A stretch of 63,566 nt of DNA, the filler included, from Craspedostauros australis (lineage: Eukaryota), in the NCBI GenBank assembly GCA_030167865.1. It is 7 parts of 7 records of this genome, joined end to end, with 100 filler letters (N's around TTAATTAATTAA, not from the genome) between each part and the next. Parts side by side here need not be neighbours in the genome. Positions count along the whole stretch, not along the records: positions 57,855 to 60,097 come from JALAGF010005978.1; 6 more parts are not named here. One strand, written 5' to 3'. Positions within the stretch are counted from its first letter, which is position 1, and every line of letters begins with the position of its first letter. The notes under the pieces were generated by a model, which saw only the letters and a program-made list of their open reading frames with translations, was not told the DNA's origin and made no database searches. The position numbers and the translations under genes are program-made. Below, one piece after another: positions 2 through 63,566 of the stretch.

Positions 2-1327
2 TTGGTCCGCGATGACCTCCGAGACTGGAGATACTCCAAACTGCAATATTGGGTTGTATCCATCGGTCTGTCATCAGTCCTGCTGGTGATAACCAGCATC
101 ATACTCAAGTGGGTGATGATCGGCAAGAAGAGACCGGGCCAAGCGAGGACCGGTATCTGGAGTGAATTCGCAGACTGGGCATGCGACTATCACTTCGACC
201 GAGCATGCATGATACTCGACGGACTGACCACCAATTCGATCATTTGGAACCTGGTCCACATGGCTCATGGATTGGACATCGATCTGCGATCAAAGATCTT
301 CAGTGACAGCTTCCATCCATCCGGAGTCGACCTCATCACCATCCGACGATCGTTCGTATCCGTCGTCACCTTCCACACGAAGGAAAACAGTAAATACAGG
401 AGAGTCACGATCGAGGATAGCAGCATTGGGATGCTGACGACCTGCGCGCCGGGTGTGACAGTCCGCAACGCTTTGGTCTCGCCGCAGACACACATCACGG
501 AGAGCGTCATCCATCCAAAGCCCGATCCGCGCAACAAGAGAGTATCAGACTTGAAACTGACCGGGATCATGGTGGCGAGCACATTGCTGTATGCTGTCAT
601 GTTGCTTGTTGCGGCAATCAGCTTCATCCCAGCCTTTGAGCTATGGATGAATGTCGTCAAGCCGCAGTCATCATTCGAGGCAGTCCCACTGGTGGTGCTA
701 TCGGTCATCATCCAGACCATTGTGTGGACCATGCTCTTGCGTGTCCACATATTCATGACGTTCGCGNNNNNNNNNNNNNNNNNNNNNNNNNNNNNNNNNN
801 NNNNNNNNNNNNNNNNATTCATGACGTTCGCGGGAAGCAATGAGCGAACGACGCCATGGTGCTTGCCGCTGTACATGGTGTACCAATCGTTCGCTTACTC
901 AGTCCATGTATGGTCGCTGTATCCCATCCTCTCGGGAACACCGATGATCAACAGCGTTCTCCGCTTTCGTGGGGTCAACGTTGGAGGTCGCTTGCTCTAC
1001 TTCGGCTTCCGCCTCTTCGAGCCGACCTACGTCACCTTCACGGATGGATGCGTCGTCGATGAATGTTGGATCACTGGTCACTGCGGCGTATTCTCCCAAC
1101 TGTCTTTGGGACAGTCACACGTCAGCGGAGTGTTGCATCAAAATTGTGCTGTCATGATGGTGGCGAAGACAGCAGCAACAGCGGACAAAGCAAGGTTGGC
1201 TGAACACGGACCTCAGCATCTCCTCATGAACTCGGATGAATCGCTGGGTGGAGGGCAATCGCAAGCCTCCCAGGAGATGGTCTATTCAGATACGACCGAG
1301 GCGAGCGAGTGGACCAACCTTTTGTAA
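2..1327 (+). CDS. 5'-partial membrane protein resembling the C-terminal region of Pls/PosA-family (epsilon-poly-L-lysine synthetase-like) NRPS
   Basis: TM hairpins alternate with soluble repeats: LKWVMIGKKRPG...DLITI and ILSGTPMINSVLRFRGVNVG...EPTYVTFTDGCVVDE...TGH. This matches the KWxxIGxxxPG / LxGTPxxxxxLRxxGxxIG pattern of the NRPS terminal domain. The gap at 767-816 is an overlap artefact (751-766 repeated at 817-832). A and T domains would lie upstream of the window. Confidence 0.68.
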   Translation: MVRDDLRDWRYSKLQYWVVSIGLSSVLLVITSIILKWVMIGKKRPGQARTGIWSEFADWACDYHFDRACMILDGLTTNSIIWNLVHMAHGLDIDLRSKIFSDSFHPSGVDLITIRRSFVSVVTFHTKENSKYRRVTIEDSSIGMLTTCAPGVTVRNALVSPQTHITESVIHPKPDPRNKRVSDLKLTGIMVASTLLYAVMLLVAAISFIPAFELWMNVVKPQSSFEAVPLVVLSVIIQTIVWTMLLRVHIFMTFAXXXXXXXXXXXXXXXXXFMTFAGSNERTTPWCLPLYMVYQSFAYSVHVWSLYPILSGTPMINSVLRFRGVNVGGRLLYFGFRLFEPTYVTFTDGCVVDECWITGHCGVFSQLSLGQSHVSGVLHQNCAVMMVAKTAATADKARLAEHGPQHLLMNSDESLGGGQSQASQEMVYSDTTEASEWTNLL

Positions 1328-1604
1328 AGTAGAGTGGCACTTTTTCTTCGATTACAACAGAATGAAGCATACGACACGATCAGCAACGCCACCAGGGACT
1401 GTGCTGAGCCCAACCCGCTGGCTTGTTCATGATGAGATCAACTTGATAACATCATTTTATCTACAATGTGTATCATTGTAAACGATGAGGACCGCAAGTC
1501 ATGACGCTTTTCTCACCCTTCGTGTTTTTGGAGATTGACTATCGCACGCTACTATTGTAATAATAAATGCTTTGGTTCCTTCTTTCTTCCCCTCTCCGTT
1601 GTTC

Positions 1605-3764
1605 TTAAGCCACGGCCGCGGGTTCATACTGCGCAAGAAGCGTCTCCAATTCTTCCCATTCCTCCATCATGTCTGCGACTTGCCCTTCCAGCTTTTGCTT
1701 CTTACTGGAGATATCCGTGAGCTTTTCGACATCGTTCCCGACGGTCATCATCTCTTCGTCCAGCGCCGAGATCTTTTCCTCCGCATTTTCCATCATACCT
1801 TCGAGCTTGCTTATCCTCTTCGGCGCGTTGTACAACTGCTTGCGGATTTTGGGATCGATATCTTGCACGCTGGGTGGTGCGGAAACATTCGACGCCGCAT
1901 CGTCGCCCTTTGTGGGAGCGGCGCCACGCATCGGCTGCGTACTAGTGAAGGATGTATCCCAGTCACCGGCGTTGGTGCCACGCTGTTCCATCGTCAAGGC
2001 GCCATCCTGCACCGTGGCAACATGGGTGAATCCAATCTGCTCGCAGAACGACTTGTCGTGGCTAATCACGACGACGGCACCATCATCTTCGCCCCAATCG
2101 GAAAGGGCGTCGCTGAGAGACTCCACGCACTCCACATCCAAGTGGTTGGACACCTCATCCAACAGGTACAGATTGCTCGGTTTCAACGCAAACATGGCCA
2201 ACGCCACGCGCGCCTTCTCACCACCGCTGAGGGCCTTGATTTGCCGCAACGATTTGTCGCCCGTCAGACCCAGTCCACCCATCACGGTGCGAGCGTCCTT
2301 GTCGGAGATGTGGATGTCGCCAAAATCGCCCTCGCGGGCGTATGCCGTGACGAGATCGACGGCACGCGCATCGAGCTCCAATTCCTGCGCCAGGTCCTGC
2401 GTGAACATGCCCAACCGCAACGATTCGTTCTCGATACGCTCGCCGTCCAGCAGCTGCAGCTTACCACGTAACGTGTGCAGGATGGTGGACTTGCCGGCTC
2501 CGTTGGGACCGCGGATCAGCAACTTCATGCCTCTCGTGATCTCGAGGTTGATGTCGGACACGAGTGGGACATCCGCAGAGTATCCCACTTTGGCATCCTG
2601 CAACGACAGCAGGACGTCGCCCATGGCGCGCGGTGGGTCCGGCAGATTCAGGGACGGCTTGAAACGCGTTTGCATGATACTCTCCGCGGGCGCATCCAGC
2701 AGACCTTGATCCCTCATCTTGTCGAGCTGCTTGACGCGCGACTGAGCGGCCGATGCCTTCGTGGCGGAGGCGCCCCACTTGTCGACGAAGGCCTGAAGCT
2801 TGGCCGCCTTGTCTGCGTTGCGTTCGTACTCGGACTGCGCGGCCAGAGCACGATCGGCCTTCTGCTGCAGGAACTGCGAGTACGACACGCTCTTGTAGGT
2901 CTGCAATCTGCCGCCGCTGATCTCGCCGACATGATCCATGGCCTCAAGCAATTCTCTGTCGTGCGTGATGAGGATCATGGCGCCGCCATCGTAGCGGCGC
3001 AGGTAATCCGCCAACCACCGGCGCGCGCCACGGTCGAGGTGATTGCCGGGCTCGTCGAGCAAGCACAGGGATGGCTTACTGAGCAGGAGCTTGGCGAAAC
3101 TGACGCGCATCTGCCAGCCTCCGCTCAGCTCGTCGCAGGTCTGGGTCAGGTTGGTGAAGCCCAGCCCCTTGAGCATGCTGGCCACTTCCTGCTCCTGCTC
3201 GTATCCTCCGACGCGTTCGTAATTTTCCATGGCGCGATCCAGCTTCTGCAAGGCCTCATCGGACGGCGATTCCGTCGCCACGAGCTCTTGAGCCTTCTCG
3301 AGCGCCTTGCGGGCGACCTCGACCTCGGCCATGGCCGATCCGGCTTCCTCCATAATGGTCTTGGTGGAACCCGCCACGGCAGTTTGGCGCAGGTATCCGA
3401 CCTTCTGGGTGGTCCCGACCGTGATGGTGCCATCGTACGGGATTTGTTCCATGATGGCCTGGAATAGCGTAGACTTGCCGCAGCCGTTCGTTCCGGTCAA
3501 GGCCCACTTGGCCTTGGGTTCGATGCGCCAATCGATGGAGGATAGGATGGGGGCGTTGCCGCGCATCACTTCGACGTCCTGGACGAGCAGGGCAGCGCCG
3601 CGCGCGTCACCACGCGAGAGATCATCCTGAATGGCCTTGGCGTGGAGTGGGCGGAAGGCTTGACGCGCCGGAAGGACGGGGTTGGAAAGGTAGGCTGCCG
3701 TCAGCATGCAGCAGGACTGCAGCAGCAACAGCGACGCCAACGCGCGGCGGTGTCCACCTGTCAT
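1605..3764 (-). CDS. ABC-F family ATPase (Uup/EttA-like), probably plastid-targeted
   Basis: Two ABC cassettes without TM domains: GTNGCGKST/LSGGW/LLDEP and GPNGAGKST/LSGGE/LLDEV. Inter-cassette linker and C-terminal coiled coil present. The N-terminal signal peptide ends TAA-Y, an ASAFAP-like site. Confidence 0.93.
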   Translation of the reverse strand: MTGGHRRALASLLLLQSCCMLTAAYLSNPVLPARQAFRPLHAKAIQDDLSRGDARGAALLVQDVEVMRGNAPILSSIDWRIEPKAKWALTGTNGCGKSTLFQAIMEQIPYDGTITVGTTQKVGYLRQTAVAGSTKTIMEEAGSAMAEVEVARKALEKAQELVATESPSDEALQKLDRAMENYERVGGYEQEQEVASMLKGLGFTNLTQTCDELSGGWQMRVSFAKLLLSKPSLCLLDEPGNHLDRGARRWLADYLRRYDGGAMILITHDRELLEAMDHVGEISGGRLQTYKSVSYSQFLQQKADRALAAQSEYERNADKAAKLQAFVDKWGASATKASAAQSRVKQLDKMRDQGLLDAPAESIMQTRFKPSLNLPDPPRAMGDVLLSLQDAKVGYSADVPLVSDINLEITRGMKLLIRGPNGAGKSTILHTLRGKLQLLDGERIENESLRLGMFTQDLAQELELDARAVDLVTAYAREGDFGDIHISDKDARTVMGGLGLTGDKSLRQIKALSGGEKARVALAMFALKPSNLYLLDEVSNHLDVECVESLSDALSDWGEDDGAVVVISHDKSFCEQIGFTHVATVQDGALTMEQRGTNAGDWDTSFTSTQPMRGAAPTKGDDAASNVSAPPSVQDIDPKIRKQLYNAPKRISKLEGMMENAEEKISALDEEMMTVGNDVEKLTDISSKKQKLEGQVADMMEEWEELETLLAQYEPAAVA

Positions 3765-4489
3765 CTTCGATTGATATGTGTGGTACGAGGAGGGGTGTGG
3801 GGATGGTAGGTGTGAGTGATTTGGTGGCCCTCAATGCTATTGTGGGTTCTATCGTTGATGTTGAGAATCTTGTGTTCGATGACGACAGCGCCGCACCTGT
3901 GTTCGTCCTTGGTGTGGCTGCGTCTTCGGCTGTTTGTTCTTCCGACCGATGAATCTACGAACGAATGAATGGTGAACAACAGACCATGGACGATGTTGAA
4001 TGATGATGTTGTGCGCATGATGTGTGTGAAGAAAAGAAATCGCGAAAAAGAACAAAACCACGCACGAACACTGATGTGTGGTCTGTCCTGCGACGGGAAG
4101 TGGTGAATACGTGTCCCAAAAGTGGACAAATTCGTGGTACACTACTACGGAGACATTGGTGTATGAATTGATGTGTTGTTTGCAACAGTAGTAGTAAGAT
4201 TTGGATTTAGCTAGTGGTAGGTACCAAAGAGGTGGTATCTTCCAACCAACTCCAGGAAGGAGATCAACACATCACGACCGAGACATCGAGAACAGTGTTC
4301 GGCGAGGTTCTATTGCGCTCGCGGTCGTTCGTGCTCATGCCACACATCTCCACCTGTGCGAGGATCACAAAGATCACAAGCGTAAATCACACACATCACA
4401 AATCACCACCGAGAGATCTGCACCCGCACCGCCATCCGACAAGCACCCAACGCAACCAACTCTTGTCCTCATCTTATCGGAATACTACG

Positions 4490-5089
4490 ATGACCATGAC
4501 GGATTCTAGCACGCACGGCCCAATGCGCACGTGGAAGTGCCTCTGCATGTCGATCGCAATCAGCGTTCTGGTGGCCAGCAGCAATGGCAGTGGCAGCCCG
4601 CTCGGCGGCGTCGCAGCGGCAGCATCATGGGACGATCCAGAGAACGACATTTACAAGCAGCAAGCACTCGCCAAGCCATGGTTCACCTCGAGCCTCGTGA
4701 TCGGCGGGACCAACTTCTACATTTCCCCCATCTCAATCGTCTCGTTCTTCTTCGTCGTGATCAACTGCTACTACATCATCTTCCGCAGCGGCGGCAGCGG
4801 CGCCTTTGCGCGTGCCAACCACATCCTCGTGGCGGAGGAGGAGGCCGCCAAACGTCTCAAGAGCAAGGTGGGCAATGACTTTGCGAGGTTTCAGGAGCAC
4901 GCCGCCAAATACAGCTCATGTCCCAGCAAGAACAACGGCGGGGATCTGGGCAAGTTCAAACCGGGTGACATGGCGCCGCCGTTTGATAAGACCATCTTCA
5001 ATCCGGAAAACCCCATTCATGTCACGCTGGGTCCCATCCAGACGCAGTTCGGATGGCATCTGATCTTCATTCAGGATCGGAAGCTGTAA
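4490..5089 (+). CDS. Parvulin (PpiC-type) peptidyl-prolyl isomerase with N-terminal hydrophobic segments
   Basis: Motifs ARANHILV, SSCPSKNNGGDLG, MAPPFD and GPIQTQFGWHLI. The start is placed at ATG 4490 by judgement (4523 is an alternative). Confidence 0.88.
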   Translation: MTMTDSSTHGPMRTWKCLCMSIAISVLVASSNGSGSPLGGVAAAASWDDPENDIYKQQALAKPWFTSSLVIGGTNFYISPISIVSFFFVVINCYYIIFRSGGSGAFARANHILVAEEEAAKRLKSKVGNDFARFQEHAAKYSSCPSKNNGGDLGKFKPGDMAPPFDKTIFNPENPIHVTLGPIQTQFGWHLIFIQDRKL

Positions 5090-6286
5090 TTGTTGGGTGT
5101 GTGCGTGCAATCGCAGTGCGCTACGAATAGGTGAGTGTGCAAACAAGCACTGTCCTCTGCGCGATCGCATGAACGAACGGATGGATGGATGGATGGCGGA
5201 GCATGGCATGGCATAACTGCGCGCTGAAACAGAACGCCCGAGACGATTTGCCTGGCAACTTTTGTGAACCGCAACCCCTCATGCAAACCAACGTGCACAG
5301 GTATTCCAGAACGACAACATACTCATCCTCTCCATCTCGTGGGAGTCAATTTTGAACCCTCAACCAGCAAGAAGAGTTGACATAAAATCATAGAGGAGCG
5401 TACTATTCAACGCACAAACTACAAGTAGAGTCCTCCGTTGTCGCATTGCGCATTTGTTCTATTTCGCATAGCAAGCAAGCATGATGAACCAACGACAGAC
5501 TCCCACAAGCACCTCCAAAGGAATTGAAACATAGCAACCGAGGCATCAGATGAATGCTGCCCCATTCCTTCCCCCAACGCCCACCCCTGCTACTCATTCA
5601 ACTGTCAGGGTCCATCACGAACAATACAATCCCATCACCGTGCAGTTCCTGACTACAATCATCACCTCTCAAGAAATTCCGGCACCAATCCCATGGCGAG
5701 GAATGTCAACAAACCTGCCACCAATTTGGCGGCGACCTTGTGTTTCTGTGCCAAAAATGTTTCTCTCGCGACATGCGCGTTGCGAAATTTGGTTAGCCCA
5801 ATTGTGACGCGACGTTGACATGGGAAGGACACACAAACACAATCCCGAATAACGCATGCACATGGAGAATCGGTTAGATTGCGCCATGTGTTAAGTACGA
5901 TTTGTCGAGCACCGTTGAATTGATAAACTTGGTGCTCCACAAAATCAGTGAGTTTGAGCAAATCATCATTTTTCGTTTCGTCATCTCTCTCCCCATTCCA
6001 CCAACCAACTGTCACGCACGCCCACCACCTCCCCTTTCTCCCTGCAAATGTATTCACCATGTTCCTATTGTGGTCGTCGTCGTCGTTGTTGTTGCTACCA
6101 TTGGATGGAGTGTTGCAACTCCGAGTGCTACTGCGTGCAATGCCACCAGCAACACAACCAGCCCATCAAACCACCCATCAACTCATTCATCAACTCATTC
6201 CTTCTTTGTGATCATTCATTTCAAGCACCAACGACAGAAATCCGCAACGCCAGTATTCGTGCGTACCGTACACAGGAAACGAGATC

Positions 6287-9771: not shown

Positions 9772-10215
9772 GGTGCGTCGTTCGAATCGCAGGCGATTGC
9801 AAGAGATGTGATCGATCGGAAACAATGGACTCGCAAGAATGAAGAAGATCAGACGGACAATAGCCGCACAGGATCAACTTTGCTCGCATCAGCTTGTGCC
9901 AGAAAAGTGTGGCGATTTGCAGCTGAGGAAACCGTTGGAGGTTTGCCATGGTTGTTCGTTTCTTTGTTTCTTGATGTGATGACCGTTTTTGCCACGAACC
10001 ACTGATACGGGACTATCCAAGTACATCGAAATCGTCAAACGTGATGGAATCTCTTGGCGCCAACCATCAAAAAGATACTTCCGCGTCCTCATTCATTGCG
10101 TGCCACACACCCATCACCACAGCCACAACAATTGACCAAAGAATCAGTGAAGCCAAGCATCACAGAAGTGCACATAGAGGATACAGGAGAGACAACGATC
10201 CCCCATCGCCCCCCG

Positions 10216-10587
10216 ATGCTCGCCCGCCTCACGCGCACGATCCTGATGGTCCGATCGAGCGGAGGAGGTCTGGCCAAGGCGGTCGAGTTTTACCATTCCG
10301 CGCTGGGTTTGGGCGTCGTGCGCGTGACGGATGAATGGGCCGAGCTGCAGACGCAGAATGGGATCTCCGTCAGCCTGCAGGCCGTCACGACGGAACCGCA
10401 GCTGTCGACGGGATACTCGCCCATCCTCAATTTTCAAGTGGACGATATGGACAGCACGATAACGAACTGCGTTCAGATGGGTGGTCATCTGGATGGTCCC
10501 ATCCAGTATCCGGCGCATGGCAAGGTCGCCGTGATGAGGTCGCCCGACGGGCACATGATCGGATTGTACGAGCAGACGACGAAGTGA
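10216..10587 (+). CDS. Glyoxalase/bleomycin-resistance (VOC) family protein
   Basis: AVEFYHSALGL, LNFQVDDMD and GKVAVMRSPDGHMIGLYE are typical of the VOC fold. Confidence 0.85.
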   Translation: MLARLTRTILMVRSSGGGLAKAVEFYHSALGLGVVRVTDEWAELQTQNGISVSLQAVTTEPQLSTGYSPILNFQVDDMDSTITNCVQMGGHLDGPIQYPAHGKVAVMRSPDGHMIGLYEQTTK

Positions 10588-26215: not shown

Positions 26216-26315
26216 NNNNNNNNNNNNNNNNNNNNNNNNNNNNNNNNNNNNNNNNNNNNTTAATTAATTAANNNNNNNNNNNNNNNNNNNNNNNNNNNNN
26301 NNNNNNNNNNNNNNN
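26216..26315. other. Artificial contig spacer 44N-TTAATTAATTAA-44N (also at 32032-32131, 46213-46312, 51813-51912, 57755-57854, 60098-60197)
   Basis: The same 100-nt structure occurs six times, and the 12-mer places stop codons in all six frames. Confidence 0.97.
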
Positions 26316-32031: not shown

Positions 32032-32131
32032 NNNNNNNNNNNNNNNNNNNNNNNNNNNNNNNNNNNNNNNNNNNNTTAATTAATTAANNNNNNNNNNNNN
32101 NNNNNNNNNNNNNNNNNNNNNNNNNNNNNNN

Positions 32132-45545: not shown

Positions 45546-46563
45546 GCTGGATCGTTGGTCCATGAATCTGTCATTTGTGATCTTGTCGTGTTGTTTTCTT
45601 GATTTTCGGACAAACTTTGGTTCTTCGTTGTTCGTTTGTTCAATGTAATTTGTCCTTGCGAGCAACAAACGACATTTGCACTTAACCATTGACGATTCCC
45701 ATCCAATCAGATTCGACCAAAGTGCGCCAATTTCACACCCACATTTTCGATCAAGACAACAAAACTGGATCGGGCATCGACCAAGGGATGCAGTCTATTG
45801 TCAAGTATGAGACAAGTAGATGACGCCAAGTCGATCTTCGAACCATGATGGAACCACAAAAGTGCAGCGCTCACAATGGTGCAGGAGCGCGTCCATAGTT
45901 CCACATATTTCGGAAGCCGCTGCAATTAGCCCACTGCTGTCGCTGATCGTCAATTCTGTTGCTTGAGTCGTTGGCCTCGTGATGCAAAGCGGTAGGACAT
46001 CATGCCCCGCACCATCTCCAGCATCCGGGTCATCCGCAAACCTGCGTAGCTTGCTGAATCAATGCCATGTTCATCTCCTTCCATTGGTGGAATTCGAAAA
46101 GGCCAACACCACACAGATTCGCGAGCACTTGAAAGTCAACACACAGTCTGCCAGAGTCCGGAGCCCTCGCAAGAGGATTGCGAGCAACATCAATTCGGAG
46201 CGTGTAGATCGCNNNNNNNNNNNNNNNNNNNNNNNNNNNNNNNNNNNNNNNNNNNNTTAATTAATTAANNNNNNNNNNNNNNNNNNNNNNNNNNNNNNNN
46301 NNNNNNNNNNNNCTTTGGGTTGGCACGTTCACTACTTTTGCAGATGCTTGCTGTGCTTTCTCATCATCTGCCTTTGGTGCTGCTTTGCAGGTAATTGTGC
46401 TTTGCATATTTCAGTTGGGCGGAAGGCACCATTTGGAGACGATGATGAGATCATCATCCGTCGTTGGCTCAAGCCCTTCAAGACTTGGGTTTGGCGTGGA
46501 GCTGATCCGGTCAGAGAAGTGGGTCGTTCCCTTGGTGCCGCTGCCGCTGAGCAGACAAGCCGC

Positions 46564-47865
46564 TTAAGATGTGCAGGCTGGGCAGGAGCTGCCGGACGCG
46601 ACGGTAAAAACGGCAGTGAGAGGCGTGCAGGCGTTGGGGGCCTCAAAATTGTAGTAGCAGTAGCTGCATCCGGAGTATTTGGCAACAGGCGTGTCGTTGC
46701 ACACGCCATCGGAGAGGTTGATGTCGGCACTCCAGTAGAACTGGTATCCCAAGTATCGGCAAGAGTAGGCTGGAACGCAGGTGCCATCGCCAATCATGGT
46801 GGATCCCTCGAACTGGTTGTATGGGGTGGCCGGGTCGACATAAGTGTTACTGACGTGGGAGTTGACGTACGAACACGAGAAGTTGTTGGTGCAGGATCCG
46901 GCCCCGACGATGGTGTCGGAGACACGCTTGTTGTCGGTGGTGCCGTTGCCCTGGTCTGGTGTGATGTTGGCGTAGGATGCTGGTCCAGCACCCATGGCGG
47001 CGCAGCCGAGGGTTCCCTTGCAGGAACCTGCTCCGATGATGGCATCACCGTTGGCCTGCTGGGCGAAGGCGTAGCACGACATGTCTCCCGTGCAGGATCC
47101 TGGGGCCACAATAGAGGCCTTCTTGGATCCGGAGTTGAAGTTGAAGTATGCGCATGCTTTGTCATCGTTGGCCCCGGTGCCGCTGATGCAGGATCCCTGG
47201 AAGATGATGGACTGGGTCTCGATGCTTTTGCAAGCCTCCTTTCCGACGCAGCTGTTGGATGCGATGGAGGCGATGCCCACCCAAGAGCAAGCGTCGGTTC
47301 CGGTGCAGCAGGTGCGTCCCGCTTCGGCGCACCAGGCCATGGCTTTGGCGGCGGTTCCGGTGAACATATCTCCGTCAGCAGCGGCTCCGGCAGTGAATGC
47401 CTCGAAGACACCGGTCTTTCCGCTGATGTCATTGAAGAGGGCGACACCGGCGGCGGTGCTGGCTTGGCTGGCGAAGATCTCGAGGAGGTCGGCCTCTTTC
47501 TTGATGACCGCGAGGAGAGCAACTCCGGTGGCAGTGCTTGGTGTTCCGAGCGCGGCCAGGAAGGCGGCAGGGGTCATGTCGCTGTCCTTGGCCTTCTTGT
47601 TCTTCATGCCGTTGGCCTTGTCAGACTTGGGGTCGGAAGAAACGGGTGGCTTGGTGTCATCCTTGAGGCGGCGGAGCTTCTTGGTGACGCCGGTGACCTC
47701 CTCGATCTTTTTCTCATTGTTTCCGTAGTAAGTCCAGGAGAGCTTGCTGTTTCCGGCGACCTTTTCTTCCTTGTTGGCTGGGATGCGGAGGTTGGCGGCA
47801 CCATCATCAGCGGTGGCGGTGGTGGCGATGTGAGCCAAGATGAGGGAGCTGGTTGCGAACTTCAT
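46564..47865 (-). CDS. Secreted cysteine-rich repeat protein
   Basis: Signal peptide MKFATSSLILAHIATTATA, an RRL processing motif, then about 7 repeats of (I/V)xxGSCxGxxxC. Confidence 0.8.
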   Translation of the reverse strand: MKFATSSLILAHIATTATADDGAANLRIPANKEEKVAGNSKLSWTYYGNNEKKIEEVTGVTKKLRRLKDDTKPPVSSDPKSDKANGMKNKKAKDSDMTPAAFLAALGTPSTATGVALLAVIKKEADLLEIFASQASTAAGVALFNDISGKTGVFEAFTAGAAADGDMFTGTAAKAMAWCAEAGRTCCTGTDACSWVGIASIASNSCVGKEACKSIETQSIIFQGSCISGTGANDDKACAYFNFNSGSKKASIVAPGSCTGDMSCYAFAQQANGDAIIGAGSCKGTLGCAAMGAGPASYANITPDQGNGTTDNKRVSDTIVGAGSCTNNFSCSYVNSHVSNTYVDPATPYNQFEGSTMIGDGTCVPAYSCRYLGYQFYWSADINLSDGVCNDTPVAKYSGCSYCYYNFEAPNACTPLTAVFTVASGSSCPACTS

Positions 47866-50800: not shown

Positions 50801-51912
50801 TATTTGATATCTTCGTCCCACCTGGTTCAGATCGATGCTGATTCTCACGGTCTTCTGGGTCGCAGAAGCGTGTGCTCGCCAATTCGTCTCGAAAGTGCAT
50901 TTGGGACACTCGTCGTGCGATGAAAATGAAATCCACCGTATTTGCGTTTTTGCATCACGTGTCGCCACACAACACGGCAGAGAGTCTTTCGTTGCTCATG
51001 CGATCCTTTTGCGCTGGTTCGATTCTCGCTTTGTTCTCCGTTCTGCACTGCGCGTTGTTGTTGAGTGACCTTGTGTCATACTCCTCTACATCCATCACAA
51101 CATCATGTGCACTGCATACTCTACACACACCCTGCTATTCTACTCTGTATGATGTTGCTTTTCTGCATAATAGATCTGGATTGTTTGCCAACTGCTATTT
51201 TTGTTATTCTAACATGACGTGCACAATCACCTTCATCACTGATGTTGGAAATCCGGGGTTAGGTAGTAGATTAATCTGTTATCAATCTGTACCAATTTAG
51301 AACTGTGAGAACAAACTCCTTGACTCTCCAATTCCAATTCAGCAGCAAGTGTAATCTGTAGCAGTTCACCATGATCATGCACTTGTCCATGGTTGCTTCC
51401 ATCTGCTTCATCAGCTTGCTCTCATGCTCTCTTCTGCAGATTCATCATGCATTCCCGTGGTGATTGCATCTTCTACATTCGAGCAGCATCTCTCATAGAC
51501 GCACAGGTACCTTCAGCATGGGTCTCAGTCTGATCGATCCCACTTGACCTTCGGTTCCTCAGTATTCCTCCTGCGCCATCATCACATACTCACCGGTCAT
51601 GTTCGTTCCATGTCGCGTCGTCAATCGTGCTCTTGAGCGGATAGGGGCATCGCTTCCGTTTCTCTTTCTCAAAGAAGCGATCCCTTGTCCGTCGATGTGC
51701 ATCGACATGTCTGATATATATCGACAGTTTCGCCCATAGTCTTGGCTCATGTGCGAATACATCCCTAGAGGTCGACCCATAGGTTCGCCCTCATCACAGC
51801 GGTGGTACATGGNNNNNNNNNNNNNNNNNNNNNNNNNNNNNNNNNNNNNNNNNNNNTTAATTAATTAANNNNNNNNNNNNNNNNNNNNNNNNNNNNNNNN
51901 NNNNNNNNNNNN

Positions 51913-57754: not shown

Positions 57755-57854
57755 NNNNNNNNNNNNNNNNNNNNNNNNNNNNNNNNNNNNNNNNNNNNTT
57801 AATTAATTAANNNNNNNNNNNNNNNNNNNNNNNNNNNNNNNNNNNNNNNNNNNN

Positions 57855-60097
57855 TACAGATTCATTCGGTTCCTCGCACTCTGCACTCGGTGCTGGACGA
57901 CAAGCAGTCGTCTCAGCACTGGCATCCTCCTCCGCCCAACCTCAATGTTGGACCTCTTCGCGTCGTCCGCGTGGACGCCGTGAAGGTGTATGGTAAACCT
58001 GTGCTGCATCCTGGTGGTCTCATCCCGATCGGCTGCCTTCGGTCGGAGTTTGTGCTGGCGCCTTCCGTGTTCGGTCGTGGCAAGTGGTGCGCTCGCCCGC
58101 TTCGGTCGTTCGAGCGTCTTCGTGCGCTCGACTTCCCTGATACGGTTGCTCTCACCCTTCCTTCTGCTTCTNCTTCTGCGCTCCCNGGCAANTTGTTNTT
58201 CTCTGTTTTGTCCCAACTTTGCACATTCAACGAGGGGGGTACTTTTCTTTTCGATTCTTCTTCCTTTGCGACTGGCTGCCGTCCTGCCAGTTCGCCTCCA
58301 TCTTCTGCCGGTCGCGGCTTGAGTCCGTCTGCAGCGGTATTCATTCCTGGATCCACTGCAATGACATCTACCGCTCACCGTGCTACCATCAACTCTATGT
58401 TGCTGCCATCTTCTGGCGATTCCATGCCTCTCACTTCATCGCTCCACACCATCAGCTCCGTCTCTCCTCCTGCCTCGTCACCTACCAACGACAACTCGTC
58501 TTGTACTCCTGATTCCACAGATTCATCAGCAGCCAGNNNNNNNNNNNNNNNNNNNNNNNNNNNNNNNNNNNNNCTTCAGCGCAGCGTGCTGGAGGAGGCA
58601 GAATGGAACCGGCGCGCTCAGAAGGCTACCAAGTCCGACGACGCATCCATTCCCACTCACCTCTGGATGGATCAGCTGGTCAAGGGGTCTGCAAATCAAT
58701 GGGATATGGCGGATATGCAGAACCTGGAAGCCGGATGCAACGGCCTGAGGAGATGGATGTTGGGATGGTGGNNNNNNNNNNNNNNNNNNNNNNNNNNNNN
58801 NNNNNNNNNNNNNNNNNNNNNTCGTCCGCGTGGACGCCGTGAAGGTGTATGGTAAACCTGTGCTGCATCCTGGTGGTCTCATCCCGATCGGCTGCCTTCG
58901 GTCGGCGTTTGTGATGGCGCCTTCCGTGTTCGGTCGTGGCAGGTGGTGTGCTCGCCCACTTCGGTCGTTCGAGCGTCTTCGTGCACTCGACTTCCCTGAT
59001 ACGGTTGCTCTCACCCTTCCTTCTGCTTCTGCTTCTGCGCTCCCGGGCAAATTGTTCTTCTCTGTTTTGTCCCAACTTTGCACATTCAACGAGGGGGGTA
59101 CTTTTCTTTTCGATTCTTCTTCCTTTGCGACTGGCTGCCGTCCTGCCAGTTCGCCTCCATCTTCCGCCGGTCGCGGCTTGAGTCCGTCTGCAGCGGTATT
59201 CATTCCTGGATCCGCTGCAGCGGCATCTTCCGCTCACCAGGTTACTACCAACTCTATGTCGCTACCATCTTCTGGCGACTCCATGCCTCTCACTTCATCG
59301 CTCCACACCATCAGCTCCGTCTCTCCTCCTGCCTCGTCACCTACCAACGGCAACTCGTCTTGTACTCCTGATTCCACAGATTCATCAGCAGCCAGTCACC
59401 CTCCCATCACGACATGGGTGGCTCCATCAGAACTTCAGCGCAGCGTGCTGGAGGAGGCAGAATGGAACCGGCGCGCTCAGAAGGCTACCAAGTCCGACGA
59501 CGCATCCATTCCCACTCACCTCTGGATGGATCAGCTGGTCAAGGGGTCTGCAAATCAATGGGATATGGCGGATATGCAGAACCTGGAAGCCGGATGCAAC
59601 GGCCTGAGGAGATGGATGTTGGGATGGTGGAGTCGGCGTGTCACCACCTCCTTCTGGAGATGTTACTGTCGGCATCACCCCTCCCTGCGTCGTGTCACCA
59701 CCAAGGTTGTTGCTGTTTCAACTGATGGCATCTACCGATGGAACCGGAAAGGCAGGGCAAGGTATGCAGCNNNNNNNNNNNNNNNNNNNNNNNNNNNNNN
59801 NNNNNNNNNNNNNNNNNNNNNNNNNNNNNNNNNNNNNNNGTGTCGCTCCACTTGGTGGAATTGGGACGACGGATCTCGCCCTCTGTTCTGGAGGTGGGCC
59901 AAGGAATATCAGACTATCATTCAAGAGGGTCTGCCGGTACACTTTCAATCGTCGCCGCCAAGCTACACTCAACTGCAACGCAACGCCAACGATCCCCACA
60001 TTCGAGACATGATGGCAGCCAAGCTGTGCAAGGTCCGACAAAAGCGATACATCATCCCAGGCACTGTTCACTCCCTCACTTCGTTCTTCGGGGTACC
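57855..60097 (+). mobile_element. Two overlapping diverged copies of a retroelement ORF (DIRS-like RT N-terminus preceded by a C5-methyltransferase-like segment)
   Basis: Copies 57855-58771 and 58822-60097 differ by several substitutions. The ORF ends WWNWDDGSRPLFWRW...KLCKVRQKRYIIPGTVHSLTSFFGV, which resembles the start of a DIRS-type RT (xxFxVPK) and is cut by the contig end. Confidence 0.55.
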
Positions 60098-60388
60098 NNN
60101 NNNNNNNNNNNNNNNNNNNNNNNNNNNNNNNNNNNNNNNNNTTAATTAATTAANNNNNNNNNNNNNNNNNNNNNNNNNNNNNNNNNNNNNNNNNNNNCAG
60201 GCATTTACAAAACGAGCACCAACAACAATAGAGGACCACAAAGAGGCAGAGAGGACAACACAACCGCATCAACACCAGATCCGTCTTTTTGTTCGTCTGA
60301 TCTGTTCATCGAAAAGCGAACATAATTGCGATCGAAACAGCCGACAAGAGTTGGACTTCGAGTATCCCATCAACCTCCATTTGCATCC

Positions 60389-63300
60389 ATGGACGCAAAG
60401 ATGACAACCGCTGCAGTGACAAACAACATGACGGCGAGTAGTAAGATCGACGTCGGGAGGAACGCGTCAAGCATGCGGCTGNCGNGAAGAGCTTTGCTTT
60501 CCTTTCGGTCCGGACAGGGTCAGGATGCCACCACCGCGTCGGTGCGTTCCGGTAACTCAACCACCATCTCCACCGTCACCATCGGCGGCGATCGATCGTC
60601 AATCGAGGATGGGTCCAAGCACGAGATATACAGCATGGACAATACGCATTCAGATCACAATGGTAGTGACCTGGGCAGCCGAAGTTTTCACCAACCCAGA
60701 AGACCAACCAACAGTACCAGGAGCAACGGCAGCAGCATCGACGAAGATGACATCGATGATGCATCATCGTCTTGGAACAAGCTCGACTTTCTTCATTCTG
60801 GATTCGTTGGTCGGGATGATGAGTTGGAAAAGCTGAGATCGATCTATGGCCGGCTATGTCGCAAGCAATCAGTAACATCNTCACCGGACACGGAAGTCAG
60901 CAAGGAGATGCAAGTCGTTCTGGTTCATGGCCACTCTGGGACGGGCAAATCGGCATTGGTGGAAGCATTCGTCCGCCCGCTTTTAGCCAAAGCGAAGCAA
61001 CCGAAAGCCGCCGACACCGAACGGGAGGATGAAACAAATGATGACGAAGCGCAACCAACAGCAACGCCAACGGCAACAACACCATCGACAGAACAAGCAA
61101 CGCCACAGCCTGCTGCCCAATCTATCGCGAAGCCGTGCTACTTGTGCAAGGGCAAATACGATCAATTCAATGTTGGCGGCGCGCTATCTGCTGTCACGGA
61201 AGCATTCTCAGAGTTCTTCCTCCAATTGGCCAACTCGGACGACATCAANGAATGCGAGCGTATCGCAACCGCCATCTGCGAGAAGCTGGATGCGACCCGC
61301 CGAAAGCTGTCGTACCGCATCATCCCGGGGCTGGCCAAGCTCATGAGCAAGGTCGATCCTGATGGAACGAACCGCGCTGCTGTTGGGTATGACTTCGGCA
61401 CGCGCAACACAAACAGATCAAGCATCCATGGATCCCTGAAGCACTCGGACGGGGACGCTGGTCCCCTCGCACCATCCGTGACAGGGAGTCAAACCACCGA
61501 GATGACCGTTGAAGAGAGTCTCGAGTCGTTGATCTCGCATGACGCAGGCTTTCAACAGATCGTGTTTGGTTTCAAGGTCATCATCAAGGTGGTCAGCACG
61601 ACCACACAGCCAGTAGTGTTGTATCTCGATGGTGAGTGAACGGTGGCTGTGGCCAATCGCAGTGGACAGTACCAAATGTCATGGTCTATTCGTGTGTCAT
61701 CACAGAATGCAACAACTTCCCATTTATCTGTTCGCACACTCACAACTATACGCACATGGCCCAATCCGCCGTCCTTCGCATCATTCTCGCTATTCCGCTC
61801 CACTATCCCATGCCATACCTCGCCATGCCACACCCAAACTATTTTGATAGATCTGCAATGGGCCGACGACGCGTCATTGAAACTCATTGCTGATATCCTC
61901 GTGGATACGTCTATCCAGAATTTGCTGTTGATCGGATCCTACCGCTCCAACGAGGTCAACGACGATGATCAGCATCCACTCAACATCATGCTGAAAGAGT
62001 GGAAGCAGACCGAAGCGCAGAGGATCCACGAGATTCCACTCAACGACTTCACCAAGGAGCAAGTCGCACAGTATATTGCGAACGGACTCAAGCTGGACGT
62101 CAATCGCAAGGTCAACGAGCTGGCGACGACGCTGCACAACAAGACGAAGGGGAACGTCCTGTACGTCATGCAATCCCTGGAGGAGCTTCATAGGAAGCAG
62201 ATCCTGGCTCGCAACATCCATACCATGCAGTGGGACTGGGATCACGAACGANNNNNNNNNNNNNNNNNNNNNNNNNNNNNNNNNNNNNNNNNNNNNNNNN
62301 NCCATGCCACACCCAAACTATTTTGATAGATCTGCAATGGGCCGACGACGCGTCATTGAAACTCATTGCTGATATCCTCGTGGATACGTCTATCCAGAAT
62401 TTGCTGTTGATCGGATCCTACCGCTCCAACGAGGTCAACGACGATGATCAGCATCCACTCAACATCATGCTGAAAGAGTGGAAGCAGACCGAAGCGCAGA
62501 GGATCCACGAGATTCCACTCAACGACTTCACCAAGGAGCAAGTCGCACAGTATATTGCGAACGGACTCAAGCTGGACGTCAATCGCAAGGTCAACGAGCT
62601 GGCGACGACGCTGCACAACAAGACGAAGGGGAACGTCCTGTACGTCATGCAATCCCTGGAGGAGCTTCATAGGAAGCAGATCCTGGCTCGCAACATCCAT
62701 ACCATGCAGTGGGACTGGGATCACGAACGAGCAGCCAAGGACCTGGATCTGGCAGCGAACGTCATCGACCTCATCACATCCAAGCTACACTCGCTACCAC
62801 AGGATGTCCAGACCTGCCTGATGATGGCATCCTTCCTTCGATCGATGTTCAACCAGTCCGTGCTGGAGATCTTACTGGAGAAGGAGGCAGAATGGCATCG
62901 CTCCAATATCACTGCTTCCGATGGGTTGGACCATGGTGGAAACACCGCAGAGATGGGCAACCTGGAAAGCATCCTGGAAACTGCCACGAAGGAAGGCTTG
63001 CTTCAGAAAGTTGGTCCTGCGCGAACGCAAGCCCAAACGCAAGCCCCGCAGGAAGGGATGGCATTGGCAGACGCAGACAAGAAGAAGCCTATTGGCATAG
63101 GCACCCGTCCTTCGTCAGAAGCTGCCGCTGCCGCTACACCATGCGTGTACAGATTCGTTCACGACCGGATCCAGCAAGCAGCCCATGCCATGACCCCGAA
63201 GGGCAAGGAACTCGAATGTCTCAGGCATCGCCTCGGGAAGGCCTTGATGGAGCTTACATCACACCCCATTCTGGGAGAGAGCTGGATGGTGTTCGTTGCT

Positions 63301-63566
63301 GCGGACCAATTCGAATCGATGCCGGTGATGTTGCCTCCAGTTGAAGTCGTTTCGCCGCTCGATTTGGTCCACCTCAACCTCACAGCGGGTCAGATGGCAG
63401 TCTCAGTCTCTGCCTTTGTGCACGCATCGAAGTATCTCAACCGAGCCTTACAGATGATCGAAACCATGGTCCATGATGCGTGGGAAACGCAACATGATCT
63501 GTGCCTTGAGGTGTACAAGACCTTGGCAAAGGTCGAGCTGAGCCTTGGCTACCATGACCGTGGATC
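60389..63566 (+). CDS. STAND-type P-loop ATPase (AAA_16/COG3899-like) with helical C-terminal region; intron 61632-61850; 3'-partial
   Basis: FVGRDDELEKL, Walker A GHSGTGKS, GKYDQ. Splicing gives Walker B VLYLDDLQWAD, followed by IGSYRSNEV, KTKGN, YRFVHDRIQQAA and LNLTAG...SAF...YL. Region 61822-62251 is repeated at 62302-62730 across a gap (artefact). Confidence 0.9.

Follow-up and report, generated by a model that had tools for sequence, protein, structure and literature searches.

Does the genome of the diatom Craspedostauros australis hold a retrotransposon that carries its own cytosine methyltransferase, and is any such domain still an enzyme? The question is raised by an unplaced scaffold of assembly GCA_030167865.1 (JALAGF010005978.1), which occupies positions 57855-60097 of the 63.5-kb stretch of DNA analysed here, hereafter the window. 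A reading made from the sequence alone (the sequence-only reading) had proposed for this scaffold an open reading frame (ORF) that fuses a domain resembling C5 cytosine methyltransferases (C5-MTases) to a DIRS-like reverse transcriptase (RT), the methyltransferase being either active or degenerate and possibly serving self-methylation. Our analysis leads us to think it likely that the scaffold holds a truncated piece, assembled twice, of the Pol of a DIRS-order-like retrotransposon, in which the domain with a C5-MTase fold is catalytically dead and has been kept in a non-catalytic capacity.

The window consists of seven unplaced scaffolds concatenated via six identical joints of the form N44-TTAATTAATTAA-N44 (26216-26315, 32032-32131, 46213-46312, 51813-51912, 57755-57854 and 60098-60197), and because of this construction genes that adjoin across a joint are not true neighbours. 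The element fragment fills exactly one of these scaffolds (2,243 bp), which runs of N split into four pieces (57855-58536, 58574-58771, 58822-59770 and 59840-60097). Pieces 1 and 2, here termed copy A, duplicate piece 3, termed copy B. Along the scaffold, the features are as follows:

57755..57854 (no strand): scaffold joint N44-TTAATTAATTAA-N44; the element scaffold begins after it, with the N-terminal half of the MTase-like domain lying off-scaffold
57857..58231 (+): copy A, C-terminal part of the C5-MTase-fold domain, with the post-motif-VIII R.L.S.LD, a small domain resembling a target recognition domain (TRD) and containing HPGGLIP, the motif IX-like RPLRSFERLRALDFPD and a helix at the position of motif X
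57872-57898: PRTLHSVLD, in copy A
58232..58536 (+): copy A, Ser/Pro-rich low-complexity linker, weakly conserved across the family
58574..58771 (+): second piece of copy A, where the N-terminal region of the RT begins (LQRSVLEEAEWNRRAQKATKSDDASIPTHLW...)
58824..59099 (+): copy B, C-terminal portion of the domain with the C5-MTase fold, beginning 36 residues later than in copy A
58953-59000 (+): motif IX-like RPLRSFERLRALDFPD of copy B, present in copy A too
59043-59078 (+): P.K helix at the position of motif X, LPGKLFFSVLSQL, in copy B
59100..59432 (+): copy B, Ser/Pro-rich linker
59433..59770 (+): copy B, RT N-terminal helices, with KATKSDDASIPTHLW at 59481-59525, and LRRWMLGWWSRRV...; a region that, in the model of the relative, is already superposed on MMLV RT from residue 24 onward
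59841..60095 (+): N-terminal part of the RT fingers, from WWNWDDGSRPLFWRW at 59853-59897 to YIIPGTVHSLTSFFGV at 60048-60095
60098..60197 (no strand): scaffold joint N44-TTAATTAATTAA-N44

All of the peptides quoted in the sequence-only reading were located here, between 57855 and 60097. The two copies that it had called diverged differ at 21 of 768 comparable bases (∼97 % identity; BLASTN returns 92 % over 809 nt, with N scored as a mismatch), and they are probably two alleles, or two copies of a repeat, that were stitched together by the assembler. Its single frame did not hold up, as copies A and B sit in different reading frames and there is therefore no single continuous ORF on this scaffold; in addition, the MTase-like stretch of copy A (57857..58231) contains four single N bases. 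It was right in placing both the catalytic N-terminal half of the domain and the RT core beyond the contig, as the scaffold ends before both: its RT part stops just before the blocks VPKG..DIRMVYDG, D..MFLNF and YVDD of the family described below, with the RT core, RNase H and C-terminal domain all off-scaffold. When the Pols of this family were compared with the window by tblastn, matches were confined to 57959-60098 (best E 1.7e-24), and no other element part was found in the remainder of the 63.5 kb. A tblastn match of the window ORF at 47578-47775 (E 0.037) was discarded as a low-complexity ORF on another scaffold.

A HMMER search of 1.84 billion cluster representatives returned 139 relatives of the window ORF at E ≤ 1e-3, eight of them at E ≤ 1e-10 and none at E ≤ 1e-30; many match twice, once in the MTase-like part and once beyond the linker. 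The long protein relatives measure ∼1,075-1,323 aa, and full-length Pols about 1,200-1,330 aa. Additionally, a degenerate-pattern scan of metagenome contigs yielded 389 candidate stretches, of which 248 were confirmed, and 80 loci were kept. By BLASTP, residues 39-94 of the window protein P0003 align with residues 211-265 of the relative P0113 at 42 % identity (E 1e-8), and copy B retains all ten family-conserved residues from G226 to K284 (P0113 numbering). The window covers only the part of the MTase-fold domain homologous to P0113 residues ∼186-300; given this alignment and the ten conserved residues, it therefore encodes the half of a C5-MTase fold that comprises the small domain and motifs IX and X.

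The family is invisible to profile libraries. None of the three window pieces matches any family in Pfam, none of 26 relatives matches a relevant one at E ≤ 0.01, and none of eight long relatives does so at E ≤ 10, RT families included; the gathering threshold of PF00145, the family of C5-MTases, was reached by no scanned window piece or relative (0/3, 0/26 and, at E ≤ 10, 0/8). The same holds for the three ORFs of the element family (ORF1, Pol and ORF3), for which no Pfam match was obtained. Searches of PDB sequences with the member P0140 and with the family profiles A1, A2 and A4 gave no meaningful match. In a word-indexed protein database the window ORF matched nothing and residues 1-330 of P0140 matched only P0140 itself, and profile A2 retrieved 14 proteins there that are unnamed or labelled ‘hypothetical protein’ and bear no precomputed Pfam domain.

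The nature of the N-terminal domain was addressed by structure prediction, as the sequence-only reading had suggested. P0113 (393 aa) was folded with AlphaFold (AF2), without templates, on alignment A1 of 34 members, and the resulting model has a mean pLDDT of 80.7, with block means of 82-98 over residues 41-290. Foldseek against the PDB placed M.HhaI at the top (E 9e-9) and C5-MTases at each of ranks 1-33, those matched including HhaI, a C5-carboxymethyltransferase, M.MpeI, DNMT2, M.HaeIII, EhMeth, DNMT3A and DNMT5; the first protein of another kind was Dot1 at rank 34 (E 1e-3). VIA-align, which is independent of Foldseek and was run against representatives, superposed the model on M.HhaI with Z 19.9 and a root-mean-square deviation (rmsd) of 3.1 Å over 253 residues (model 32-300 against chain 3-325). 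Its ranks 1-19 are likewise all C5-MTases (Z 19.9-11.1, with DNMT3A/B at 13.4-13.6), and the best unrelated Rossmann protein scores Z 9.4. Both domains of the C5-MTase fold are present, and the model thus shows the N-terminal domain of Pol to consist of a class-I MTase large domain, a small TRD domain and the motif IX/X helices.

At the level of sequence the resemblance is faint, the domain of P0113 being 7-16 % identical to solved MTases. In local mode, hhalign of the family N-terminal profile (25 rows) with 33 bacterial PF00145 domains aligned motifs IX and X over 47 columns (E 0.0032, probability 10 %), with R.LT..E.l..DvP...P.Kvl of the family opposite R.LT.RE.ARL.gFPd...GNaV of the bacterial enzymes. 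Global mode produced no alignment between the family and the DNA methyltransferase (DNMT) profile, and when A1 was compared with Escherichia coli Dcm only R.LT..E aligned with motif IX (E 0.36). A PF00145 cluster is also the nearest neighbour, by ESM features, of residues 15-290 of a second member, P0140 (score 0.87), which serves as a lead only. The order of elements in the bacterial consensus (motif VIII, l.dil segment, TRD, motif IX, motif X) agrees with that on which the sequence-only reading had relied. That the likeness exceeds chance is backed by the 139 relatives, by the match between P0003 and P0113 and by the hhalign alignment of motifs IX and X.

Might this likeness be a modelling artefact or a generic Rossmann match, with the resemblance to motif IX arising by chance? 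The low identities, the hhalign values, the null profile searches of PDB sequences and an alignment depth of 34 sequences would all be in keeping with such an explanation. We nevertheless hold it to be highly improbable, as M.HhaI scores Z 19.9 against 9.4 for the best non-C5-MTase, no templates were used, and the match takes in a small domain and C-terminal helices, both of which are absent from generic Rossmann proteins. Moreover, two independent weak signals agree with one another, namely the motif IX/X alignment and the language-model features of a different member.

The strands of the model were mapped onto alignments of 24 and of 32 complete N-terminal domains of relatives, with the bacterial consensus (fIDLFaGiGG, gGfPCQpFS, lENV, PQ.ReR, RrLtpRE.ARLqgFPd and Q.GNaV) for comparison. 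The sequence-only reading had recommended looking upstream for motifs I (FxGxG), IV (PC), VI (ENV) and VIII (RxR), and none of these is present in either set. In place of FxGxG, strand 1 is followed by ..G.P.W (P53 in 22/32, W55 in 27/32). The Pro-Cys of motif IV is missing, and in no column from 103 to 118 does Cys rank among the four most frequent residues; the position after strand 4 instead shows D109 in 20/32, a gap, and then PP in 14-17/32. No ENV follows strand 5, and where motif VIII has QxRxR, the strand 6-7 hairpin reads H-x3-G-G-V-T-D, with H149, G153 and G154 in all 32 domains and T156 in 27 of them (a set regex-selected for the motif). Motif X, already described as degenerate, has no GN(A/S)V and shows P-x-K at the aligned position (P282 in 32/32, K284 in 30/32), which in the window is PGK.

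Motif IX is retained. R251, L253, E257, D263 and P265 are each present in at least 80 % of the 32 domains, and the window carries RPLRSFERLRALDFPD, which contains the full RxL...E..R...FPD. Furthermore, 11 of the 18 positions conserved at ≥ 80 % in this set fall within residues 199-284, which correspond to the DNA-recognising half of real enzymes. A hidden Markov model (HMM) of 33 bacterial DNMT domains found nothing among all ORFs of ≥ 80 aa from the 80 loci and among 157 proteins (best E 0.43). Since the five defining motifs were looked for and are absent, the domain is not a member of PF00145; its fold and motif IX indicate either descent from that family or convergence on it. With no Gly-rich S-adenosylmethionine (SAM) loop, no catalytic Cys and neither ENV nor QxRxR in the relatives, methylation appears to have been lost, and the domain is most likely a non-catalytic pseudo-methyltransferase rather than a self-methylating enzyme. 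As such, the proposed fusion of a C5-MTase-like domain with a DIRS-like RT stands as regards the fold and the RT context, and falls as regards sequence motifs I, IV, VI, VIII and X.

The alternative that had been entertained at the outset is an active, or recently active, C5 cytosine methyltransferase that was captured by the retrotransposon and methylates the element's own cDNA, as in SymbioDIRS-Dnmt3. It would account for the fold and for the conservation of motif IX, complete in the window, and there is a precedent in the Dnmt3 domains within the Pol of DIRS-like elements, which methylate CG de novo (PMC5890265). We consider it very unlikely here, given that FxGxG, PC, ENV, QxRxR and GN are found in none of the 24 and 32 complete domains, that PF00145 is matched by none of the 26 relatives nor by any of the eight at E ≤ 10, and that the bacterial HMM is silent across 80 loci and 157 proteins.

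As to what lies downstream, an 887-aa metagenome Pol segment extending from the KAxKxDDA motif to the stop (L153:3616-6276) was folded with 38 aligned sequences (pLDDT 86.5, pTM 0.88). Foldseek matched this model to the foamy-virus protease-RT (PR-RT; 2.6e-15) and then to the RTs of Moloney murine leukaemia virus (MMLV), cauliflower mosaic virus (CaMV), Ty3 and HIV-1. VIA-align gave Z 18.4 (326 aligned) and Z 18.1 (242 aligned, rmsd 2.8) for MMLV RT, followed by HIV-1 RT (16.1), CaMV (15.7), foamy virus (15.6) and Ty3 (15.2), and RNase H1 superposed on model residues 542-671 with Z 9.7. As the MMLV RT superposition begins at model residue 13, the stretch KATKSDDA...FFGV of the window (59481-60095) is N-terminal RT. 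An RT of the long terminal repeat (LTR)/retroviral type together with RNase H in the Pol ORF, as is characteristic of the DIRS order, is thus found in the relatives, the window holding the RT N-terminal part only. The sequence-only reading had made its case depend on an MTase fold or upstream motifs and on a downstream RT; the fold was found, and an RT is present in full-length relatives.

Beyond RNase H, at model residues ∼690-887, Pol ends in a confidently predicted alpha/beta domain with the conserved W.PPPAAA...HKRP..H.F..PRLMT..WRK.L. This tail (flW.P.PaaA...PRLMT..WRK.L) may resemble those of DIRS and Ngaro elements, and the domain could be the equivalent of the region that follows RNase H in them. 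With regard to a Dam-like methyltransferase, nine full Pols matched no Pfam family at all, the C-terminal alpha/beta domain not having been searched alone.

Pol does not stand alone in the relatives. In 17 of 20 long loci it is preceded by a long ORF1 of like orientation (∼750-870 aa where complete); coiled-coil is the sole weak Pfam lead in three of the four ORF1s scanned, and the product is presumed to be Gag-like. ORF3 (450-570 aa, typically ∼520), which has a common C-terminal tail, either follows Pol or overlaps it in 19 of the 20. Seventeen ORF3s (alignment A4) align at 31-50 % identity to the first sequence, and all 17 have Arg336 (LRGEE), Lys372 (GRFKGE), Arg466 (SRSFRRG), Trp489 (NRWR) and Tyr508, with Arg463 nearly invariant; the 23 residues separating R466 from W489 equal the spacing in Cre and XerD. 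In one of the nearest ESM-Atlas clusters 18 % of the members carry PF00589 (score 0.96), and in another ALOG is found on 78 % and PF00589 on 29 % (score 0.94). ORF3 is accordingly graded as a probable, not a proven, tyrosine recombinase (YR). Of the downstream parts foreseen by the sequence-only reading, then, RT and RNase H were recovered in relatives and a YR-like ORF follows Pol in 19/20 loci, its identity as a recombinase being unconfirmed by profiles. The N-terminal third of ORF3 is Cys-rich (L153:6029-7603 and 16 others), with C..Cg...G.fCaNf...R..w.pC...WcG.CY and FQCD.C.FRN and no Pfam match, a pattern suggestive of zinc-binding modules that precede the recombinase-like domain.

Of six long contigs, four (L162, L124, L168 and L137) close on themselves, with identical ends of 127-300 nt and a period of 8,044-8,723 nt, as is expected of repeats that carry terminal direct repeats or stand in tandem, and the termini are therefore hidden; collapsed terminal repeats, tandem arrays or circular DNA are possible origins of this closure. 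Overall, the element would work like a DIRS-order retrotransposon and probably belongs to that order. Two further loci deserve mention. In L164, arrays of a 75-nt tandem repeat (2747-4454 and 10080-10361) flank a 5'-truncated member on both sides and are the only repeats seen there. In L150, a 2,022-aa ORF of unknown nature (86-6151, minus strand) lies directly upstream of a complete element, and a 42-nt repeat occurs at 1-42 and 6185-6226.

These relatives also bear on whether the ORF belongs to a mobile element at all or is instead a host gene or a domesticated fragment. The presence of a mere fragment in the window, with no other element part in 63.5 kb, would suit a host gene, an explanation to which we give very little credence. 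The scaffold is tiny, unplaced, duplicated and gap-ridden, as is typical of unresolved repeats; the relatives are three-ORF units with RT and RNase H; and four of the six long contigs are self-closing (period 8.0-8.7 kb), as repeats are in assemblies.

Several points weigh against interpreting the fragment as part of a DIRS-like element with a dead methyltransferase domain. The window is without the N-terminal half, and the loss of motifs I-VIII is read from relatives at 20-45 % identity. The evidence for the folds comes from structures that were predicted rather than solved, and the alignments behind them are shallow (34 and 38 sequences). Between copies A and B, dN/dS is 0.62 (252 codons, 21 differences), with too few changes to interpret. 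ORF3 has no Pfam match at E ≤ 1 and no PDB sequence match, and hhalign of ORF3 with 30 bacterial PF00589 domains gave a misaligned result at E 0.34. In the three loci with flanks (L149, L150 and L200) no repeats of ≥ 18 nt bound the unit, leaving DIRS-type termini unproven. Finally, the invariant H-x3-G-G-V-T at the motif VIII position and the frequent D..PP at the motif IV position make an unorthodox catalysis possible. The invariance of H...GG.T is partly circular, given that the 32-domain set was picked by the regex H-x3-[GC]G-x-[TS]; the 24-domain set was hand-picked from a motif scan that included H...GG.T.

This last point leads to another candidate, a different enzyme built on an MTase scaffold, either amino-methyltransferase-like or SAM-independent, that would act via His-x3-Gly-Gly-Val-Thr and the D..PP after strand 4. 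The residues concerned are frequent (H149, G153 and G154 32/32, T156 27/32, D109 20/32, PP 14-17/32) and occupy the motif VIII and IV positions. Apart from the selection of the 32-domain set on the H...GG.T motif itself, this candidate faces three difficulties. Motifs of the D/N/S-PP-Y/F/W type have an aromatic residue after PP, and here PP is without one; strand 1 is followed by no Gly-rich cofactor loop (P53 22/32 and W55 27/32 are found instead); and the top structural neighbours are all C5-MTases, none of them N6 or N4 enzymes. We therefore judge it unlikely.

Full elements of this family span ∼8-8.7 kb and contain three ORFs, ORF1 (∼750-870 aa, with a coiled-coil end), Pol (∼1,200-1,330 aa) and ORF3 (∼520 aa). 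Pol comprises, in order, the C5-MTase-fold domain (∼265 aa), the Ser/Pro linker, an RT of retroviral/LTR type, RNase H and the alpha/beta C-terminal domain. Taking the domain to be a pseudo-methyltransferase within a DIRS-like Pol, the element would copy itself through RT and RNase H, and insertion would use the ORF3 recombinase. The MTase-like domain would no longer methylate and would be kept for a non-catalytic job, most likely the binding of nucleic acid, be it element RNA/cDNA or target DNA. Such binding would go through the half containing the small domain and motif IX, where conservation within the domain is highest and which is also what the window carries of it.

Among the closest known systems is SymbioDIRS-Dnmt3 of Symbiodinium (de Mendoza et al., 2018), in which a Dnmt3-clade DNMT lies in Pol, has its key residues conserved and, when placed in yeast, carries out de novo methylation of CG (PMC5890265); according to its Methods, Pfam seeds do not align with the RT of the Symbiodinium DIRS elements (PMC5890265). 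The two share a cytosine-MTase-type domain and an RT inside Pol, a separate ORF for a recombinase (a probable one here) and an RT invisible to Pfam (0/8 long Pols here, E ≤ 10). They differ in that the DNMT of SymbioDIRS-Dnmt3 is a recognisable PF00145 domain with catalytic residues, whereas the present one is invisible to PF00145 and is without motifs I, IV, VI, VIII and X. Structurally, the modelled domain has more in common with compact enzymes of the bacterial type that possess a full TRD (M.HhaI, Z 19.9) than with DNMT3A/B (Z 13.4-13.6). It shares with M.HhaI and the C5-MTases of bacteria and phages (PF00145) the two-domain fold and the order of l.dil segment, TRD, motif IX and motif-X helix, but the SAM loop, Pro-Cys, ENV, QxRxR and GN of those enzymes are missing.

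DNMT3L is a catalytically inactive host regulator with a DNMT fold that pairs with DNMT3A/B. The parallel lies in a DNMT fold that is kept after the loss of catalytic motifs, which implies a non-enzymatic role; the difference is that DNMT3L is a host regulator, whereas the dead domain described here sits inside a retrotransposon polymerase.

Among Ngaro/PAT-like members of the DIRS order, the Cafeteria Ngaros resemble the present family in having a Gag-like ORF, an RT/RNase H ORF and a recombinase ORF (a probable one in the present family), with no DDE integrase or protease detected (PMC8547959). In contrast to this family, which matches none of them, they match Pfam RVT_1, RNase H and Phage_integrase according to the same text (PMC8547959). 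Compared with Ngaro, the family has an additional domain of MTase fold at the N-terminus of Pol, the three loci with flanks showed no split direct repeats, and no Dam-like MTase family was matched. Cytosine methyltransferase modules in the Pol of retrotransposons are also reported, in a 2026 preprint, as Gypsy-Dnmt3 in Klebsormidium and as the DNMT4-like EpiLTRs of Cymbomonas and Euglena (10.64898/2026.05.21.726589), and the EpiLTRs are to that extent similar; the words diatom and stramenopile are absent from this preprint (10.64898/2026.05.21.726589). A 2025 survey gives, in the text available, only the known cases of DNMTs borne by transposable elements (TEs) (PMC12344493), and TE-borne DNMTs go unmentioned in the five passages of a diatom DNMT survey that contain retrotransposon terms (PMC9998398).

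Within the available portions of this literature (including PMC5029228, PMC5890265, PMC9998398, PMC12344493, PMC8547959 and the 2026 preprint, with Repbase and subscription journals outside its scope), no degenerate C5-MTase-fold domain in the Pol of a DIRS-like or YR retrotransposon is described, nor is any DNMT-bearing retrotransposon in diatoms. MTase-carrying retrotransposons have so far come from Symbiodiniaceae, Klebsormidium, Cymbomonas and Euglena, and in every case the domain can be identified from its sequence and is presumed to be active. Here the same fold lies at the start of Pol in a large family missed by profile libraries, with the catalytic motifs gone and the DNA-recognition half conserved. 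A methyltransferase fold can, on this interpretation, persist in a retroelement for a non-catalytic purpose. In algae and in plankton metagenomes, surveys that rely on PF00145, RVT_1 or PF00589 would arrive at counts that are too low, both for DNMT-like domains borne by TEs and for YR retrotransposons, and alignments A1-A4 help to annotate the ∼8-kb elements now labelled ‘hypothetical protein’.

A broader proposal, which we find doubtful though worth stating, is that a widespread lineage of YR retrotransposons in aquatic protists has kept a dead cytosine MTase under selection as an epigenetic or nucleic-acid tool, and that it shares one ancient DNMT capture with SymbioDIRS-Dnmt3. The domain might in that event act as a DNMT3L-like partner, as a decoy for host DNMTs, as a reader that steers integration, or as a DNMT2-like module binding RNA or primer. 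If true, a single shared capture would give DIRS-like elements with a DNMT a far greater age and a far wider distribution than the two or three lineages now known suggest.

Other parts of the window were also inspected. Between 54852 and 57806 there are > 2 kb of perfect repeats with a 12-nt period, interrupted by N and open in several frames on both strands, one frame reading (PTSG)n and another of DQPA/LDQ type; these may represent a mucin-like or cell-surface repeat gene, or a satellite. Downstream of the element scaffold, a block is duplicated near-exactly on either side of the N gap 62252-62301 (61640-62326 versus 62194-62790), with the same peptides (...HATPKLF and SFVIPVPLHGMDVASQDLL...) appearing twice; this is the same type of assembly duplication as in scaffold 57855-60097. 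Finally, 60326-61639 and 62194-63564 contain a long ORF in which a P-loop motif (VLVHGHSGTGKSALVEAF) precedes an extensive helical region; it is possibly a STAND/AAA-type NTPase and is not related to the element.

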